Positions 2,013 through 40,993 of a DNA stretch of 64,000 nt are shown here, one piece after another. Location: assembly GCF_003019035.1 (NCBI RefSeq), contig NZ_CP027447.1. One strand, given 5' to 3'. The stretch is from Escherichia coli. GTDB taxonomy: Bacteria; Pseudomonadota; Gammaproteobacteria; Enterobacterales; Enterobacteriaceae. Position 1 is the stretch's first letter; each line of letters opens with the position of its first letter. The notes under the pieces are model-generated. The model did not search any database, was not told the origin of the DNA, and saw nothing but the letters and a program-made list of their open reading frames with translations. Position numbers and translations under genes: made by a program.

Positions 2013-3659
2013 TTATTTCACACAGCGAGTGCACTGTGTGAGTTGTATCTGCTGGAAGAAGTCATTTCCTTTATCATCCACAAGGATAAACGCCGGGAAA
2101 TCTTCCACTTCAATTTTCCAGATGGCTTCCATTCCCAGTTCCGGATATTCAACACATTCCAGGCTCTTAATACTTCCCTGCGCCAATACAGCGGCCGGAC
2201 CACCGATACTGCCAAGGTAGAAGCCGCCGTGTTTTTTACAGGCATCCGTCACCTGCTGGCTGCGGTTGCCTTTCGCCAGCATGATCATACTTCCGCCCTG
2301 CGCTTGCAGTTGATCGACATAAGAATCCATCCGTCCGGCGGTCGTTGGGCCAAGAGAACCGGAGGCATAACCTTCCGGCGTTTTGGCCGGACCCGCGTAG
2401 TAAATCGGATGATCTTTAATGTACTGCGGCAGCCCTTCACCGTTATCCATCCGCTCTTTCAGTTTGGCGTGAGCAATATCACGACCGACGATAATCGTGC
2501 CGTTAAGCGATAAGCGTGTAGAAACGGGATACTGCGACAACTGTGCGAGGATCTCTTTCATCGGACGGTTAAGGTCAACGCGCACCGCTTCGCCTTCTCC
2601 GGCTTTGCGCAGCTCTTCCGGGATATATTTGCCTGGATTATGTTCCAGTTTTTCGATCCAGATCCCCTGACGGTTGATCTTCGCTTTGATATTACGGTCA
2701 GCAGAACAGGAGACGCCCATACCGACCGGGCAGGATGCGCCGTGACGTGGCAGGCGAATCACGCGGATGTCGTGAGCGAAGTATTTACCACCAAACTGCG
2801 CACCCAGACCGAGATTTTGCGCTTCGATCAGCAATTCTTTTTCCAGTTCCACATCGCGGAATGCCTGACCGTGCTCATTCCCTTCCGTTGGCAGTTCGTC
2901 ATAGTATTTAGCGGAAGCCAGTTTCACTGTTTTAAGGTTAGTTTCTGCAGAAGTTCCACCAATTACGAACGCAATATGATACGGAGGACAGGCCGCCGTA
3001 CCCAGCGTGCGCATCTTCTCAACCAGGTAATTTTTCAGTTTCCCCGGCGTTAGTAACGCTTTGGTTTCCTGATAGAGATACGTCTTGTTTGCCGAACCAC
3101 CACCTTTGGCGATACAGAGGAATTTGTACTCGTCGCCATCAACGGCATAAAGATCGATCTGCGCTGGCAGATTGGTGCCGGTATTCACCTCTTTATACAT
3201 ATCCAGCGGCGCGTTTTGCGAGTAGCGCAAATTATCTTCGATATAAGTGTTATAGACACCGCGCGCCAGCGCCGCTTCATCACCACCACCGGTCCATACA
3301 CGCTGCCCTTTTTTACCAACAATAATCGCGGTGCCGGTATCCTGACAGGTTGGCAGAACGCCTTTCGCCGCGATGTCGGAGTTGCGCAGGAATTGCAGCG
3401 CCACATATTTATCATTTTCGCTGGCCTCCGGGTCACGCAGAATGTCGGCCACCTGTTGTTGGTGAGCCGGACGCAGCATAAACGACGCATCATGAAACGC
3501 CTGACGCGCCAACAGAGTTAACGCTTCGGGTGCGACTTTCAAAATCTCCTGCCCTTCAAATTCAGATACGCTAACGTGTTCGCTGGTTAGCAGGTAATAC
3601 TCAGTATCATCTTTTTTGAGTGGAAAAGGAGCCTGATAATGAAAGGGTTTGTTTGACAT
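2013..3659 (-). CDS. fumA: Fumarate hydratase class I (Fe-S dependent)
   Basis: 548-aa ORF with class I fumarase sequence. Confidence 0.95.
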
Positions 3660-35000: not shown

Positions 35001-35060
35001 TGATGCGCCGCGCGATAAACGTACCTATTTCCGTGAGATAAATTACATCGCCGCGGCATT
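35001..35060. repeat. Putative prophage terminal sequence (Mu right-end-like, transposase-binding-like repeats)
   Basis: TGATGCGCCGCGCGATAAACG resembles the Mu R-end TGAAGCGGCGCACGAAAAACG (recalled from memory); repeated CGnGATAAA motifs; lies 78 bp beyond the invertase stop. Confidence 0.45.
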
Positions 35061-35078: not shown

Positions 35079-35651
35079 TTACAACTCAGCTTGAGTTTGA
35101 AGTTCCTCTACAGGGTGATAACGATAAATCGTCGATATACCGATATCGTAAATAATTGCCAACTGTTTCCTGCTATAGCCATTTTTGATCAGCCTTGCTA
35201 TTTGTTCATGTTGCTCTTTTGTCAGTTTCGGACGACGTCCACCAATACGCCCCTGTGCACGTGCTGCTTCAAGTCCGGCCAGTGTTCGTTCGACTATTAA
35301 TTCACGCTCCATTTCCGCTAAAGCCCCCATGACGTGAAAAAAGAAACGTCCCATGGGTGTTGACGTATCAATGCTGTCTGTAAGACTACGGAAGTTAACC
35401 CCTTTTTCCCGCAGTTCCTCAATAAGAGTGATTAGGTGTTTCATGCTTCTGCCCAGCCTGTCCAGCTTCCAGACAACGAGCGTATCTCCTTCTGATAACG
35501 TTCTGAGCAGCTTTTTCAATCCCGGTCGGGCTGACTTTGTTCCGCTGATTTTATCCTCAAAAATCAGTTCACATCCTGCGCAGTTCAGTGCGTTTCGTTG
35601 TAAATCTGTATTCTGGTCATTTGTTGACACACGAATGTAGCCAATTTGCAT
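35079..35651 (-). CDS. Serine-recombinase DNA invertase (Gin/Pin/Hin family)
   Basis: Start taken at MQIGYIRVSTNDQNTDLQRNAL (190 aa); catalytic-Ser N-terminal motif and C-terminal HTH; closest to Pin/Gin by memory. Track ORF 35079..35846 is over-extended. Confidence 0.92.
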   Translation of the reverse strand: MQIGYIRVSTNDQNTDLQRNALNCAGCELIFEDKISGTKSARPGLKKLLRTLSEGDTLVVWKLDRLGRSMKHLITLIEELREKGVNFRSLTDSIDTSTPMGRFFFHVMGALAEMERELIVERTLAGLEAARAQGRIGGRRPKLTKEQHEQIARLIKNGYSRKQLAIIYDIGISTIYRYHPVEELQTQAEL

Positions 35652-35722
35652 GAAAAATATCCTCTTTGTTTTGTTAAAAATACATAGCTGGTATAGGTGG
35701 GAGTTAAGACGAAAACGTTGGT

Positions 35723-36184
35723 TTGGGGGAAGGCTCTGCACTACCTGTTGGTGTGCCTGTTCCATGGCCGTCAGCCACACCGCCAACAGGGTGGCTGAAA
35801 TGTAACGGTGCAGCATTTTCTTCTGAAATGTACCCCAATCTGGCAAAGGCTTACCCCACGAATAAATTACCGGATTTACGGGGCGAATTTATCCGTGGCT
35901 GGGATGACGGACGAGGTATTGATGCAGGACGAGAGATACTTTCATTTCAGGAAGGCACTATCGTCTCCGGTTTTGATGATAATGATACTGGGGATATCAG
36001 TTCACTTAGCTCAACACAATACGGATTTGGTGACACTCTAACCTCTAATCAATGGGGGGCCATAAATGGCAAAAAGTGGATATTTGATGCATCCAGTAAA
36101 GGTGCACAAAAATATGACTGGTGGGCTTATGTATCAGCTCGTCCGCGTAATATTGCATTTAATTACATCGTAAGAGCGGCATAG
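35723..36184 (+). CDS. Tail-fibre C-terminal alternative cassette A (start-less, inverted relative to the fibre gene)
   Basis: Shares the conserved block GEGSALPVGVPVPWPSATPPTGWLKCNGAAFSSE...RGEFIRGWDDGRGID and the conserved end RPRNIAFNYIVRAA with the expressed fibre; no ATG (the track start is an alternative TTG codon). Confidence 0.7.
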   Translation: MGEGSALPVGVPVPWPSATPPTGWLKCNGAAFSSEMYPNLAKAYPTNKLPDLRGEFIRGWDDGRGIDAGREILSFQEGTIVSGFDDNDTGDISSLSSTQYGFGDTLTSNQWGAINGKKWIFDASSKGAQKYDWWAYVSARPRNIAFNYIVRAA

Positions 36185-36194
36185 AAACGTTGGT

Positions 36195-36671
36195 TTGGGG
36201 GAAGGCTCTGCACTGCCCGTTGGTGTACCTGTTCCGTGGCCCTCAGCCACTCCACCAACGGGCTGGCTGAAATGCAACGGCGCAGCATTTTCTTCTGAAG
36301 ATTACCCCAAACTGGCACAGGCTTACCCCGCGAACAAATTACCGGATCTACGGGGTGAATTTATCCGTGGCTGGGATGACGGGCGAGGGATTGATGCAGG
36401 ACGTGCTTTATTAAGCTTTCAAACTGGGATGCTGGAAAAACACCGCCATATTGTTGTAGCTAACGATGGGTATGACACAAAGGATGAATGGGAGTTGGCC
36501 ACAATTTTCAAAAAAACATATACACAAGGACGGGGACTTGATGCCACAAGTACAGGCGGGAGTCTGATCCCATCACCGACACTTCATTCACGAGGGAGTA
36601 TTGGTAACACTGGTGGTAGTGAAACTCGCCCCCGCAATATCGCATTTAACTATATCGTGAGGGCGGCTTAA
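36195..36671 (+). CDS. Tail-fibre C-terminal alternative cassette B (start-less, inverted)
   Basis: Same conserved 5' block and 3' end as cassette A, with a different central region; immediately follows cassette A. Confidence 0.7.
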   Translation: MGEGSALPVGVPVPWPSATPPTGWLKCNGAAFSSEDYPKLAQAYPANKLPDLRGEFIRGWDDGRGIDAGRALLSFQTGMLEKHRHIVVANDGYDTKDEWELATIFKKTYTQGRGLDATSTGGSLIPSPTLHSRGSIGNTGGSETRPRNIAFNYIVRAA

Positions 36672-36677
36672 TTATAC

Positions 36678-37295
36678 TCAACTGGCTGCTGCCAGAGGCA
36701 TTTCCGGCCAGTTGATATCCGGTGCAGTGCTGATGTCAGTCGCATTAAGCGTATCTATGAAATCAAGCACGGCGTTTAGTTTTTCCGTCTCCTGGGGCGT
36801 CAATCGGCGTCCGGCTCGTAGTTTGAGATTAATAAGCTCAACAGATGCCATTGCCTGTTCCTCAAGTTGCTGACGATGCGCTCCGGCAGCTTCCAGTTCT
36901 GCTGCGTGCTGTCGTCTCGTATCTGTCACCCAAATCTCACCATCCCAGACATCATAGATAGTAGCTGGCTGTTTCACCGTCGTATCAGGAGGGTAATCTC
37001 CCGGTTGTGTGATTTGCACAGCGTTACCATTCTCTGTGCTGTAAACCGTTTCGCCTCTGTGGTCTGGAACATATTTCCAGATGTTCTGGTCGGTATCACG
37101 ACAGACAGCGAAGCCGGGGCGTTTTTCTGGTGGCGCGTCAATGCATGAGTGAGCCGGAATTCCAACACCATAAGCGAGATACTCAACAGTGGCAGAGAGA
37201 TATTCACGGTTTTCAGCATCGTAGTTATAAACGGTAATATCGCCTGCAGTTATAGCGATACCATTCTGATCAAGTACTGCAGCAGCATTATTCAT
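36678..37295 (-). CDS. Tail-fibre assembly protein (Mu U / P2 G-like chaperone)
   Basis: 205-aa ORF of the tail-fibre assembly family; its start overlaps the cassette C stop (TAATG). Confidence 0.8.
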   Translation of the reverse strand: MNNAAAVLDQNGIAITAGDITVYNYDAENREYLSATVEYLAYGVGIPAHSCIDAPPEKRPGFAVCRDTDQNIWKYVPDHRGETVYSTENGNAVQITQPGDYPPDTTVKQPATIYDVWDGEIWVTDTRRQHAAELEAAGAHRQQLEEQAMASVELINLKLRAGRRLTPQETEKLNAVLDFIDTLNATDISTAPDINWPEMPLAAAS

Positions 37296-37819
37296 TAAGT
37301 AGCCCTTACAATATAGTTAAACGCAATATTACGGGGGCGGTTTTCCGTTCCTGTATTCCCTCCGTTGGCACCTAATCTATAAACACCACGAGTGCCAATA
37401 GCACGTAGTGAAGATGGAACTTTTACACCTGACTCATCTGTTTTAACAATCCCGCCATCACCGTATGTAGCCAGTATACCAGGGTTTGTTCCTGCACGGG
37501 TGCTGTTTGCGGCAAGCCCTTCACCAGTCCATAACTCCATATAATGAATATGATCTATAACCGAATGTGATTGTGCATTAAGCAAGGAACGCCCTGAATC
37601 AATTCCCCGCCCGTCATCCCAGCCACGAATAAACTCGCCCCGTAAATCCGGTAATTTATTGGTGGGGTAAGCCTTTGCCAGTTTGGGGTACATTTCAGAA
37701 GAAAATGCTGCACCGTTACATTTCAGCCACCCCGTTGGCGGCGTGGCTGAAGGCCATGGAACGGGCACACCAACGGGCAGCGCCGAGCCTTCCCCTAAAC
37801 CAACGTTTTCATGCGGCTC
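37295..37819 (-). CDS. Tail-fibre C-terminal alternative cassette C (start-less, direct orientation)
   Basis: Frame is open from the stop at 37820-37822; encodes ENVGLGEGSALPVGVPVPW...ENRPRNIAFNYIVRAT; no ATG. Confidence 0.7.
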   Translation of the reverse strand, partial: EPHENVGLGEGSALPVGVPVPWPSATPPTGWLKCNGAAFSSEMYPKLAKAYPTNKLPDLRGEFIRGWDDGRGIDSGRSLLNAQSHSVIDHIHYMELWTGEGLAANSTRAGTNPGILATYGDGGIVKTDESGVKVPSSLRAIGTRGVYRLGANGGNTGTENRPRNIAFNYIVRAT

Positions 37820-38351
37820 TTACGATGTAATTGAATGCAACGTTGCGGGGGCGTGTTTCTGCTGTGCCGACAATACTGGTACTCAGTCCTGTCGCTGTTC
37901 GTTTGTTATTTTTATTCCCTTCGATAAGACAGTTGTAATCGTCATTACCAATTAACGAGTTGGTGGCATCAATACCGTCCGGGGACAAGGCATTAGTTGT
38001 GGAACTTAAAGTCAGCATCTCGTCTGAACTTGGAAGATTTTTTAATGGGGTCTCATTACGTGAAATACCCGCATAAAAAAAGGACTCATGCCTGTGCGCT
38101 TCAAAAGAGTCATCCTGAAGACTTAGCAAGGCACGCCCAGCATCCAAGCCACGTCCATCATCCCAGCCACGGATAAATTCACCCCGTAGATCCGGTAATT
38201 TGTTCGCGGGGTAAGCCTGTGCCAGTTTGGGGTAATCTTCAGAAGAAAATGCTGCGCCGTTGCATTTCAGCCAGCCCGTTGGTGGAGTGGCTGAGGGCCA
38301 CGGAACAGGTACACCAACGGGCAGTGCAGAGCCTTCCCCAAACCAACGTTT
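37809..38351 (-). CDS. Tail-fibre C-terminal alternative cassette D (start-less, direct; G-tract one nt shorter than in the others)
   Basis: Conserved 5' block and RPRNVAFNYIVRAA end; the frame begins directly after the fibre gene's TAG stop; ggtttgggg here versus ggtttggggg in the fibre and cassettes A and B. Confidence 0.65.
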   Translation of the reverse strand, partial: KRWFGEGSALPVGVPVPWPSATPPTGWLKCNGAAFSSEDYPKLAQAYPANKLPDLRGEFIRGWDDGRGLDAGRALLSLQDDSFEAHRHESFFYAGISRNETPLKNLPSSDEMLTLSSTTNALSPDGIDATNSLIGNDDYNCLIEGNKNNKRTATGLSTSIVGTAETRPRNVAFNYIVRAA

Positions 38352-39317
38352 CTATGCTGCTCTCACAATGTAGTTAAAGGCGATGTTGCGTGGACGAGTT
38401 ACATTAAAAAAGGACCCACTTAAAGCAGCTTTGGCACGACCAGCGACGTTACCCAGAATTGCATACCATAAATAATCACTCCTGTAATTCGTTGAAAATG
38501 TTTTATCGCCACCGTAATCAATACTATTTCCGTTACTCATATATGAAATATCAACTGCGGCATCATTGTCATCTCTACCACCAACCAAAGTACCTTTCTG
38601 CCACCCAAGCAACTGGCGACCAGGATCAATCCCGCGCCCGTCATCCCAGCCACGGATAAATTCACCCCGTAAATCCGGTAATTTATTGGTGGGGTAAGCT
38701 TTTGCCAGTTTGGGATACATTTCAGAAGAAAATGCTGCACCGTTACATTTCAGCCAGCCCGTTGGTGGTGTTGCTGAGGGCCACGGAACAGGCACACCAA
38801 CGGGCAGCGCAGAGCCTTCCCCCAAACCAAGGTTTTTGACAAACAGCGCAGGATCAGGAATATCTGCGCCGTTCTGGTCTTTAGCCAGCTTTTCCGCCAG
38901 CTTGTTCAGTACCGTAGTCGCAAAGTTTGGATCATTACCGAGAGCGTCAGCCAGCTCTTTAAGCGTATCCAGTGTCTCAGGGGCGCTGCCTGCAAGCGCC
39001 GCAAGTGCTTTGGCCACAAACTCCGTTGTCGCCAGCTTTTTGCTGTTATCGCCATTTGCAGGTGTAGGTGCTGTTGGTGTGCCGGTGAATGTCGGACTGG
39101 CTTTCTGTGCGTACTGGGTATGCGGGTCTGCTGCCGCGATGTGTTTCGCAAGGTCAGCCCCGCCTTTTTCAACCTGTTGCTTCAGGTACAGCGTGCGGCT
39201 GGCCAGTTGTTTACCCTGACGGTTAGAAATTCCGTCAGGTCCGCCCAGAACGGGGTCAGAGACCTCAATCTGGTAGATGCCGTCTTCCCACTGCGGGGTT
39301 TCGGGTAGATTTGCCAT
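38352..39317 (-). CDS. Tail fibre protein (constant N-terminal part plus the currently fused variable C-terminal part)
   Basis: 321-aa ORF; residues from about 165 onward carry the same conserved block and end as the cassettes. Confidence 0.88.
   Translation of the reverse strand: MANLPETPQWEDGIYQIEVSDPVLGGPDGISNRQGKQLASRTLYLKQQVEKGGADLAKHIAAADPHTQYAQKASPTFTGTPTAPTPANGDNSKKLATTEFVAKALAALAGSAPETLDTLKELADALGNDPNFATTVLNKLAEKLAKDQNGADIPDPALFVKNLGLGEGSALPVGVPVPWPSATPPTGWLKCNGAAFSSEMYPKLAKAYPTNKLPDLRGEFIRGWDDGRGIDPGRQLLGWQKGTLVGGRDDNDAAVDISYMSNGNSIDYGGDKTFSTNYRSDYLWYAILGNVAGRAKAALSGSFFNVTRPRNIAFNYIVRAA
38817..38842. promoter_or_regulatory. Candidate invertase crossover site (hix/gix-like 26-bp imperfect palindrome) at the fibre constant/variable junction
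   Basis: TTCCCCCAAACC-AA-GGTTTTTGACAA; the right half matches the hixL half GGTTTTTGATAA at 11 of 12 positions (consensus recalled from memory); an equivalent GGTTTGGGGGAA half-site starts every cassette. Confidence 0.4.
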
Positions 39318-39976: not shown

Positions 39977-40993
39977 TCACCAGTTCGACCGGTACACCCC
40001 GGAAACGGACAACACGCTGATAATCTGGCTGGGAACAATATCGCGCCCCAGCGTGGCGGTACGGGATGCCACCCAGTTCTGTATGGCGCTGTTAGCGTTG
40101 TCCTTTACCAACCTTGCATCCTGATCACGATAGATCGTAATCCTGGCTTCAATGGTGTAATCCACCTGAACAGGTGTTTTAGCCCGCACGGTATCAGTGA
40201 GTGGTCTGACTTTTTCGTCAGAACAGAAACTCTCTACCAGAGTGAGGATACTGCTGTCCGGCAGACCAGTGCTGAGCAGCGGATACAGCTCGACAGTGCC
40301 GGGAGCGGGAGAAAGAACAGCAACGTCGACAATGCCGGGATGCGCCCCCATAGCATGAAAACGGTATGCACCACGGCTTCCGGCATTGGTGAATGACTCC
40401 GGGGCCAGCCTGATACGCTCCCGGAGTCGGTCATCGTCTTCCTGCTCTGAACCGCCAGAGCTGGCCGTCAGATTGGTCACCAGCAGGTCAATGTTATCAA
40501 TCTCATCGAGTAACTGACTGACCTGCGCCGGTTGCCAGCCGTTGCCAGCGGTACCCGGCTCGGTACAGGTGGCCGTGACATTGACCAGCAGCAATCCGGC
40601 CTTCAGCACCACATCTGTATCGGTGGCAAAAATAATACTGTCGGAAGCGCTGACGCGGGTGCCTGCCGGGATCAGCACATCAATGGCCAGTGCCTCATCC
40701 ACAGAGAACTGAAGTGTGGTGGTGGCAGGCTGCGCAGCAAGGCGGTATACACCGACCAGTTCACCGAGGTAATCAATCATCGGCTCCCGGGAAAAGGCGA
40801 CCAGATTCAGCTTCGCCGCCTCCTGTACCGCCACCCTGACCAGCATTTCGCGATAGGCCCACAGGTCTATCAGCAGACGTTCTGCCTGTGCCGGGTACAA
40901 CGTTTTGCCGGTATCCGCTTCATACTTCGCAATCATTTCTGCCGTGATTTTATCGGCATCGCGTTCAATAAAATCGGGTTCTGTCAGCGCCAT
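39977..40993 (-). CDS. Baseplate protein J-like (P2 gpJ / Mu gp47)
   Basis: 338-aa ORF; overlaps the W-like gene upstream. Confidence 0.75.
   Translation of the reverse strand: MALTEPDFIERDADKITAEMIAKYEADTGKTLYPAQAERLLIDLWAYREMLVRVAVQEAAKLNLVAFSREPMIDYLGELVGVYRLAAQPATTTLQFSVDEALAIDVLIPAGTRVSASDSIIFATDTDVVLKAGLLLVNVTATCTEPGTAGNGWQPAQVSQLLDEIDNIDLLVTNLTASSGGSEQEDDDRLRERIRLAPESFTNAGSRGAYRFHAMGAHPGIVDVAVLSPAPGTVELYPLLSTGLPDSSILTLVESFCSDEKVRPLTDTVRAKTPVQVDYTIEARITIYRDQDARLVKDNANSAIQNWVASRTATLGRDIVPSQIISVLSVSGVYRSNW

Follow-up and report, generated by a model that had tools for sequence, protein, structure and literature searches.

The Min system of plasmid p15B was described by Sandmeier, Iida, Arber and colleagues between 1990 and 1992 (cited in PMC5903667 and PMC6906374). 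There, one Din-family serine invertase is reported to act on crossover sites that number more than two and lie in both orientations, and successive, overlapping inversions join a constant 5' fibre part to one of several start-less 3' cassettes; the locus that we describe here has the same design. The likeness is drawn from descriptions of Min; as differences, the present locus resides in a Mu-like prophage instead of a P1-like plasmid and has a single tfa gene and one frameshifted cassette. Comparison with the G segment of phage Mu extends to the sequences themselves: over 180 aa the invertase shares 75% identity with Mu Gin, homologous codons of the fibre gene hold the crossover site, whose 12+2+12 architecture is the same, and the gene order gp47-gp48-fibre-cassettes-invertase (baseplate-fibre-invertase) is followed by a Mu-type genome end. 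In Mu, however, there are two gix sites, and either of the two S/U pairs comes with an assembly gene of its own; the present locus has five sites (p15B Min is said to have six) and five short collar-domain cassettes, with a single assembly gene. The core dinucleotide is TT here and TC in Mu, and, unlike in Mu, no com/mom follows the invertase before the genome end is reached.

Cin of phage P1, Pin of e14 and Hin of Salmonella belong to the same invertase family and also act on 26-bp sites, but each works as a binary switch with two sites, and what Hin flips is a promoter and not the end of a gene. The recombinational enhancer of Mu and Salmonella is a cis element within the 5' portion of the invertase gene. 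Hin and Gin both depend on Fis and an enhancer (PMC3798978, PMC3575834), and high identity to gin makes a putative Fis-dependent enhancer likely in the present locus too. The R64 shufflon offers an analogy only: there, too, a surface-recognition protein receives alternative C-terminal segments through multiple inversions, but the recombinase (Rci) is a tyrosine enzyme, the sites are different and it is a pilus adhesin that varies.

In the 64,000-nucleotide stretch that we analysed (the window), the region of interest is the variable end of a tail-fibre gene in a Mu-like E. coli prophage, and its driver is a Gin/Min-type serine invertase. The locus as a whole is a multiple-inversion system of that type: one invertase, one tail-fibre assembly gene, five 26-bp sites and five 3' cassettes that lack start codons (Table 1). 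The best solved homologues of the invertase among PDB matches are the Gin structures 4m6f and 3uj3 (E about 1e-90); its catalytic motif, GYIRVSTNDQ, conforms to the Din-family pattern YxRVSTxxQ, which contains the Ser of the N-terminal catalytic domain, and a helix-turn-helix occupies the C-terminus. With five cassettes and sites in both orientations (three on the minus strand, two on the plus strand), the locus has the multi-site layout of the Min type; we computed that 48 cassette arrangements are reachable. The ATG of the assembly gene overlaps the stop codon of cassette E (TAATG).

Table 1. Coordinates of the fibre-switching locus and of a damaged baseplate gene in the window
Feature	Position	Strand	Remarks
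Serine DNA invertase gene, Gin/Min type	35079..35651	-	190 aa; Pfam Resolvase 1.7e-51 and HTH_7
Crossover site A, adjoining the invertase	35706..35731	+	AAGACGAAAACG TT GGTTTGGGGGAA
Silent cassette A	35720..36184	+	151 aa after GE; tail-collar domain and tip
Crossover site B	36178..36203	+	Aligns with Mu gix
Silent cassette B	36192..36671	+	156 aa
Tail fibre assembly (chaperone) gene	36678..37295	-	Pfam Caudo_TAP 8.7e-26; the only such gene in the locus
Silent cassette E	37295..37801	-	165 aa; tract AGGGG
Crossover site E	37790..37815	-	Aligns with Mu gix
Cassette D	37809..38344	-	175 aa after GE; Pfam Collar domain; body intact, out of frame relative to the crossover core
Crossover site D	38333..38358	-	Right half-site GGTTTGGGGAAG in place of GGTTTGGGGGAA
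Four-base G tract of D, one base short	38336..38339	-	cccc on the plus strand
Stop codon (TAG) of cassette C and of the fibre expressed at present	38352..38354	-	
Cassette C, at present fused to the fibre	38352..38828	-	
Crossover site F, within the fibre gene	38817..38842	-	TTGTCAAAAACC TT GGTTTGGGGGAA
Tail fibre gene, constant 5' part	38829..39317	-	Homologous to Mu Sc
Baseplate J/gp47-like gene, truncated	39977..40993	-	Single-base deletion at 39990/39991; 338 aa, not 367 aa

A junction search of the window returned five matches, against 0.02 expected by chance. On the coding strand these read AAACCTTGGTTTGGGGGAAGG in the fibre, AAACGTTGGTTTGGGGGAAGG at both A and B, AAACGTTGGTTTAGGGGAAGG at E and, one base shorter, AAACGTTGGTTTGGGGAAGG at D. 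Each is built of imperfect, inverted 12-bp half-sites around a 2-bp core, and all five align with Mu gix; site F and gix (TTATCCAAAACC TC GGTTTACAGGAA) align at an equivalent position of the S protein (KNLGLGE against QNLGLQE). In the mechanism that we propose, one site in the fibre gene and one heading each silent cassette would permit successive inversions to join the constant 5' fibre part to any of the five alternative 3' cassettes (A to E). Strand exchange would take place at the central TT dinucleotide; the downstream GGTTT(G)5 half-site would then belong to the cassette and encode G-L-G-E in the fibre frame.

Natural isomers in related prophages bear upon where the strands are exchanged. 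An identical 321-aa fibre is present in five other assemblies, in which the DNA is 99.5-99.75% identical and cassettes A to E occur in four different orders and orientations; these cassette orders are indirect evidence that inversion is active in the lineage. Strains JB2 and M114 carry cassette A joined to the fibre. The flanks in sister prophages swap exactly at the core: the left flank GGGAGTTAAGACGA continues to adjoin the invertase in all relatives, whatever cassette comes after it, and the C of AAACC always remains with the fibre, while the A of the AGGGG tract of cassette E always moves with the cassette, as do the A's of the AGGAG tracts in relatives L001 and L003. Since the tract A accompanies E behind three different upstream neighbours, the crossover must lie to the left of that A. 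Our alignment to Mu puts the annotated boundary of the G segment on the core. Together, the isomers and this alignment place the crossover at the TT core, upstream of the G tract, and a tract so placed moves with its cassette. A search of the phage collection found no close relative of the locus.

It is in this tract that cassette D stands apart. D begins ggtttGGGG, with four bases where five stand in cassettes A, B and E and in the fibre now expressed; the first-pass annotation had described the D tract as one nucleotide shorter than those of the fibre, A and B, and a comparison of all five junctions bears this out. The tract of cassette E, which that annotation did not mention, is AGGGG, the same length as G5. 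Among about 384 homologous junctions, some 383 retain a five-base tract (GGGGG, AGGGG, AGGAG or GGGAG, always encoding GLGE), including all of the 16 D-type cassettes that we found in relatives; synonymous A's break the tract in about 20% of the sites. The single other G4 junction (L088) heads a decayed cassette that also bears a nonsense mutation. Sister prophage L154 has the same C-TAG-D junction with G5, and over 7,726 bp just two indels separate it from the present prophage, one in the D tract and one, a deletion, in the J gene. At the nucleotide level D is 99.8% identical to the G5 allele of L118 (1 difference in 528 nt), and its protein is 99.4% identical to D-type cassettes in P2-like prophages; cassettes of this type are found, too, in P1/p15B-like plasmids of E. 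coli. Of 581 E. coli records, none aligned to the G4 junction without a gap, and in metagenome contigs the G4 pattern had 0 matches while the G5 pattern matched 82 stretches. A look-up of the 112-aa open reading frame that a gene caller would be expected to predict from a G4-type D gave no match and so pointed to no second G4 carrier; a protein-pattern scan for D, with one genome per species, returned distant relatives only (at most 39% identity) and is uninformative on the tract. These comparisons indicate that the deletion is derived, rare, recent and specific to this strain.

Because the tract moves with its cassette, and D lacks one G, a fibre-D fusion would be out of frame: it is predicted to read ...KNLGLGKALHCPLV... 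and to stop after 188 aa, and so judged from its sequence it would carry neither the collar domain nor the receptor-binding tip. This agrees with an earlier proposal that D would fuse out of frame if the exchange occurred upstream of the tract, which the isomers and the Mu boundary now support. D is two inversions away from the expression site, which it occupies in 12 of the 48 reachable arrangements. We consider it probable that cassette D was killed recently, within a prophage undergoing decay, when this Gin/Min-type fibre switch lost a G from the D tract. The suggestion that D is a decayed pseudo-cassette thus fits, with the reservation that the decay is minimal: the body is intact and differs from the G5 allele at the one position given above. 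The term decay here refers to a single base, and there is no other damage in the body.

The main rival to a killed cassette is that the lesion does not exist: the true tract would be G5, the missing G a homopolymer error of base calling or polishing, and D an ordinary, functional silent cassette. G5-to-G4 is the typical and commonest homopolymer deletion error, the G4 state is near-unique among the junctions compared, and a cassette one base from a perfect allele is what such an error would leave. Moreover, the one further unpaired indel of the prophage, that in J, sits in a CCWGG (Dcm) motif, a known context for long-read errors. However, the flanking chromosome has 0 indels in 32,002 bp compared with SCU-301 (99.994% identical), even though it includes 25 G/C runs of at least five and 83 CCWGG sites, and the J deletion is reproduced exactly on an independent Logan J-gene contig (run SRR27538754); recurrence in an independent assembly argues that the suspicious J indel is real. 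We therefore regard an artefact as unlikely, if not negligible. Cross-mapping of reads between the repeated cassettes was also considered as the source of the deletion and rejected: every paralogous copy has five nucleotides, so cross-mapping cannot yield a four-base tract. A different reading, complementary to that of a frame-killed cassette, holds that the main effect is on the site and not on the frame: the deletion would disable site D and link C and D permanently, so that D would never be expressed. The deletion falls in the 12-bp right half-site and changes its outer bases (positions 9-12) from GGAA, which is common to gix GGTTTACAGGAA, to GAAG, and this one-bp shift may weaken binding of the invertase. 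By hand count the internal left half-sites match gix at just 4-6 of 12 positions, and binding would on that account probably depend on the right half; we computed that the loss of site D would reduce the reachable arrangements from 48 to 12. Set against this, binding by invertase dimers is cooperative and accommodates imperfect half-sites, and the invariance of GAA is equally well explained by the Glu codon. We consider a disabled site possible, though the less expected outcome.

We think it very improbable that the deletion is functional, with D kept as a low-level or conditional tip through TAG readthrough, -1 frameshifting at U_UUG_GGG in a fibre-D fusion, or slippage in the G run, whether as an on/off switch or by reversion. 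The idea draws on an observation that is itself correct: minus-strand translation from the fibre ATG gives ...NYIVRAA*KRWFGEGSALPVG..., such that the D frame is exactly continuous with the fibre frame through the TAG. The link that the first-pass annotation saw in this is a matter of arithmetic. Cassettes at normal junctions are invariably offset by +1 from the stop that precedes them; D is in frame because this offset minus a one-base deletion is frame 0. The short tract and the TAG frame are consequently not independent, as any single-base deletion in the tract would put D in frame. We conclude from the sequence comparisons that the in-frame position of D behind the TAG is a by-product without function. 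Nor is there significance in D having no ATG of its own, to which attention had been drawn: A, B and E have none either, and D lacks a start codon because all of these are 3' cassettes.

Two further features could be cited for recoding: the fusion sequence GGT TTG GGG AAG contains a formal X_XXY_YYZ heptamer, created by the G4 allele, at which, in a by-hand reading, a -1 shift restores ...GFGEGSALPVG..., and an 11-bp inverted repeat lies 14 nt downstream. A 14-nt spacer and a G-rich A-site codon are, however, poor for -1 frameshifting, and the predicted hairpin does not exceed shuffled sequence in stability (z = -0.76) and shows weak covariation. As a conserved RNA structure or frameshift stimulator after every site, the repeat was rejected on this same z value and on pairing of 83% against about 78% expected. 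Programmed recoding was likewise discarded, its hairpin being non-significant and its configuration occurring in 0 of the ~383 homologous junctions and in 0 of the 16 other D-type cassettes; these, and the C-TAG-D junction of L154, retain the five-base tract and the +1 offset. With the in-frame TAG arrangement missing from every relative, slippage and readthrough are unsupported. The suggested reliance of D on slippage also sits poorly with a tract of only 4-5 nt, which is too short for a contingency locus and is constant in length outside D and L088; that class was rejected on these grounds and on the A-interruptions in about a fifth of the sites. Were recoding nevertheless to operate, bet-hedging by DNA inversion would gain a second layer, at translation; the readthrough route would, in the present arrangement, place two tandem tips on one fibre.

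Returning to the killed cassette, the G4 of D is most plausibly a first step of decay in a prophage that was probably already defective: the frameshifted baseplate gene and the lesion in D suggest that the prophage is probably non-infective, its early region lying outside the window. A real lesion would mean fibreless particles from as many as a quarter of the arrangements that can be reached. G4 is then an ordinary, strain-specific lesion in a well-known kind of DNA-inversion system, and has little importance beyond annotation, in which D would be entered as a frameshifted silent cassette (pseudogene) and the locus as a Gin/Min-type multiple-inversion fibre switch of a Mu-like prophage. It does illustrate that an apparent in-frame readthrough can be pure arithmetic, and that silent cassettes, being unexpressed and unprotected by selection, can die by one base change within a recombination site.

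Five matches to AAAC(C/G)TTGGTTT(G/A)GGG were returned by a pattern search of the 64-kb window, compared to 0.02 expected by chance. When they are aligned, the G tract that follows GGTTT in silent tail-fibre cassette D proves one nucleotide shorter than in the expressed fibre gene and cassettes A and B, just as the first-pass annotation had described. The other parts of that description also hold: translated on the minus strand from its ATG at 39317, the fibre reads ...NYIVRAA*KRWFGEGSALPVGVPVPWPSATPPTGWLKCNG..., in which D's conserved frame continues that of the fibre through the TAG at 38352–38354, and D has no start codon, a property shared by every other cassette. The accompanying interpretation survives only in part: an upstream crossover and a disabled cassette stand, whereas slippage and a functional link to the TAG do not. 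The fibre-switching system is of an already known kind, and D is one of its silent cassettes, put out of action by the loss of a single base, specific to this strain, within its own crossover half-site; a new mechanism is not called for.

Features of the invertase locus, with crossover sites from the alignment of the five matches
Feature	Position	Strand	Remark
Invertase gene	35079–35651
Silent cassette A	35720–36184	opposite to C/D/E
Silent cassette B	36192–36671	opposite to C/D/E
Tail-fibre assembly gene (tfa)	36678–37295		only one in locus; start overlaps E stop (TAATG)
Silent cassette E	37295–37801	as C
Silent cassette D	37809–38344	as C
Expressed cassette C	38352–38828	minus
Constant fibre part	38829–39317	minus	homologous to Mu Sc
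Sites in expressed fibre gene and heading A, B			GGTTTGGGGGAAGG
Site of E			GGTTTAGGGGAAGG; same length as fibre/A/B sites
Site of D	38336–38339 (tract)		GGTTTGGGGAAGG; one base shorter

The locus belongs to a Mu-like prophage. The E. coli chromosome in the window, positions 3000–35001, extends from the rsx operon to anmK and differs from strain SCU-301 by two mismatches and no indels over 32 kb (99.994% identity). At 35001/35002, between anmK and slyB, the prophage opens with a Mu-type end, TGATGCGCCGCGCG; in SCU-301 this site is empty. The order of its structural genes (terminase, portal, sheath, tube, tape measure, gp44-48-like baseplate genes, fibre) is shared with Mu-like prophages in other strains of the species, at ~97.5% identity. 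The serine recombinase (190 aa) carries the Pfam domains Resolvase and HTH_7 and shares 75% identity with Mu Gin, and its best solved homologues are Gin crystal structures; it adjoins the prophage end with no intervening com/mom genes, which Mu has at that place. The fibre site, TTGTCAAAAACC-TT-GGTTTGGGGGAA (KNLGLGE), occupies the same codons as gix, the Gin crossover site of Mu, TTATCCAAAACC-TC-GGTTTACAGGAA (QNLGLQE), and the boundary of the invertible G segment annotated in the Mu record coincides with the two-base core. The layout is that of the Gin/Cin/Pin/Hin family, whose systems use 26-bp sites together with Fis and an enhancer (PMC3798978, PMC3575834), here in the multi-site form that PMC5903667 and PMC6906374 cite as first described for Min of plasmid p15B.

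Natural isomers show that the system is active and where it exchanges. An identical 321-aa fibre is encoded in five other assemblies, in prophage DNA 99.5–99.75% identical to the window, and these sisters display four cassette arrangements that differ in order and orientation: C,E-tfa,B',A',D'; C,A,D,B...; C,D,A,E-tfa; and C,E-tfa,B'. In the last (L152) only three sites remain and A and D are missing, presumably deleted between directly oriented sites or between the repeated collar regions. In the sisters and in more distant relatives, two elements stay in place throughout, the C of the fibre's AAACC and the flank GGGAGTTAAGACGA next to the invertase, while the A of E's AGGGG tract always travels with its cassette behind different upstream neighbours, as does the A of AGGAG tracts in two P2-like prophages (L001, L003). 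This places exchange within TTGGTTT, in keeping with a TT core, and the G tract to the cassette side of it; the crossover is not downstream of the G-run, so one of the two outcomes that would have refuted the first-pass annotation is excluded. P2-like and Mu-like prophages, as well as a P1/p15B-like plasmid of 92 kb that carries about 12 cassettes, have near-identical D-type and other cassettes with the same sites; cassette and site travel together as a module among phage backbones that are unrelated.

When D is joined in silico to the constant part, with the core as the junction, the product is ...FVKNLGLGKALHCPLVYLFRGPQPLHQRAG*, 188 aa without collar domain or tip, so the predicted out-of-frame fusion is upheld. 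The deletion falls inside the right half-site of D, where GGAA at positions 9–12 (as in gix) becomes GAAG, and the left half-sites of the internal sites match gix poorly, at 4–6 of 12 positions by hand count on the alignment; for these reasons site D may also be weakened for the invertase. Breadth-first enumeration, allowing inversions only between oppositely oriented sites, reaches 48 arrangements, with D at the expression site in 12, the nearest two inversions away; if site D were dead, 12 arrangements would remain and D would never be expressed. For five cassettes there is one tfa, translationally coupled to E; half of the 48 arrangements place it and the fibre gene on opposite strands.

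Elsewhere the tract has five bases: at 34/34 junctions in the six E. coli loci fetched first, all 20 in the five sisters, 156/156 on metagenome contigs and 173 on viral contigs (against one with four). The 16 other D-type cassettes included here all have five. A G5 D-type cassette (L118) differs from the window's D at one of 528 nt, and sister L154 has an identical C-TAG-D junction with G5. The G4 pattern matched nothing in the metagenome contigs, where the G5 pattern matched 82 stretches; the 63-nt G4 junction was found at ≥99% in none of 581 records of complete E. coli genomes, and among the alignments listed for it, all span one extra subject base and hence are G5. The only other G4 junction found (L088, 1200–1450, minus strand) stands at the head of a cassette in another invertase locus; a TAC-to-TAA nonsense change and further damage mark that cassette as decayed independently. 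G4 is neither typical, conserved nor recurrent. Leu-Gly-Glu is encoded by each of the tract variants (GGGGG, AGGGG, AGGAG, GGGAG), which shows selection on the frame that runs on from the fibre. The synonymous A breaks the G run at ~20% of about 383 junctions; such tracts are, incidentally, less prone to slippage.

D's relation to the TAG is a by-product of the deletion. A normal junction reads TAG/TGA-AAA-CGT-TGG-TTT-GGG-GGA in the upstream frame and A-AAC-GTT-GGT-TTG-GGG-GAA in the cassette frame, which is offset by +1 from the stop before it; loss of one base must bring the cassette into frame 0, so the link is not a second, independent observation. The in-frame arrangement occurs in no relative, which argues against programmed readthrough. 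Slippage in the G-run, or a contingency tract, is rejected on the grounds that the tract has 4–5 nt, is length-invariant across hundreds of junctions and is often interrupted. Translational recoding of a fibre-D fusion has some formal appeal: G4 creates U_UUG_GGG, an X_XXY_YYZ heptamer at which a -1 shift would restore ...GFGEGSALPVG..., and an 11-bp inverted repeat, GCCCGTTGGTG...CACCAACGGGC, begins 14 nt downstream. However, its hairpin does not exceed shuffled sequence in stability (z = -0.76), covariation at its one variable pair is weak, and we find recoding scarcely credible. The repeat lies in collar-domain coding region (38275–38323 in D), is kept in all cassettes and is probably a by-product of conserved PVG...PTG codons.

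Could G4 be a sequencing artefact? Homopolymers and Dcm motifs are classic long-read error contexts, and the window differs from L154 by two indels in 7,726 bp, one in each: the G-tract deletion and a single-base deletion at 39990/39991, which turns the Dcm site CCAGG of all relatives into CC-GG. Yet the 32-kb chromosomal flank, for all its 25 G/C runs of at least five and its 83 CCWGG sites, shows no indels against the near-identical SCU-301, and a 4-nt tract cannot be created by read cross-mapping among cassette repeats. Moreover, the exact truncated protein produced by the second deletion recurs on an independent Logan contig (run SRR27538754; 99.94% identical, no gaps), replicating that deletion. 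A look-up of the 112-aa ORF expected from a G4-type D gave no match. An artefact thus seems unlikely, and G4, read from one assembly, is probably a real deletion. The prophage carrying the disabled D also has a frameshifted baseplate gene: the 39990/39991 deletion shortens the J/gp47-like protein (gene 39977–40993) from 367 to 338 aa, and uncouples its gene from the downstream gp48/I-like gene.
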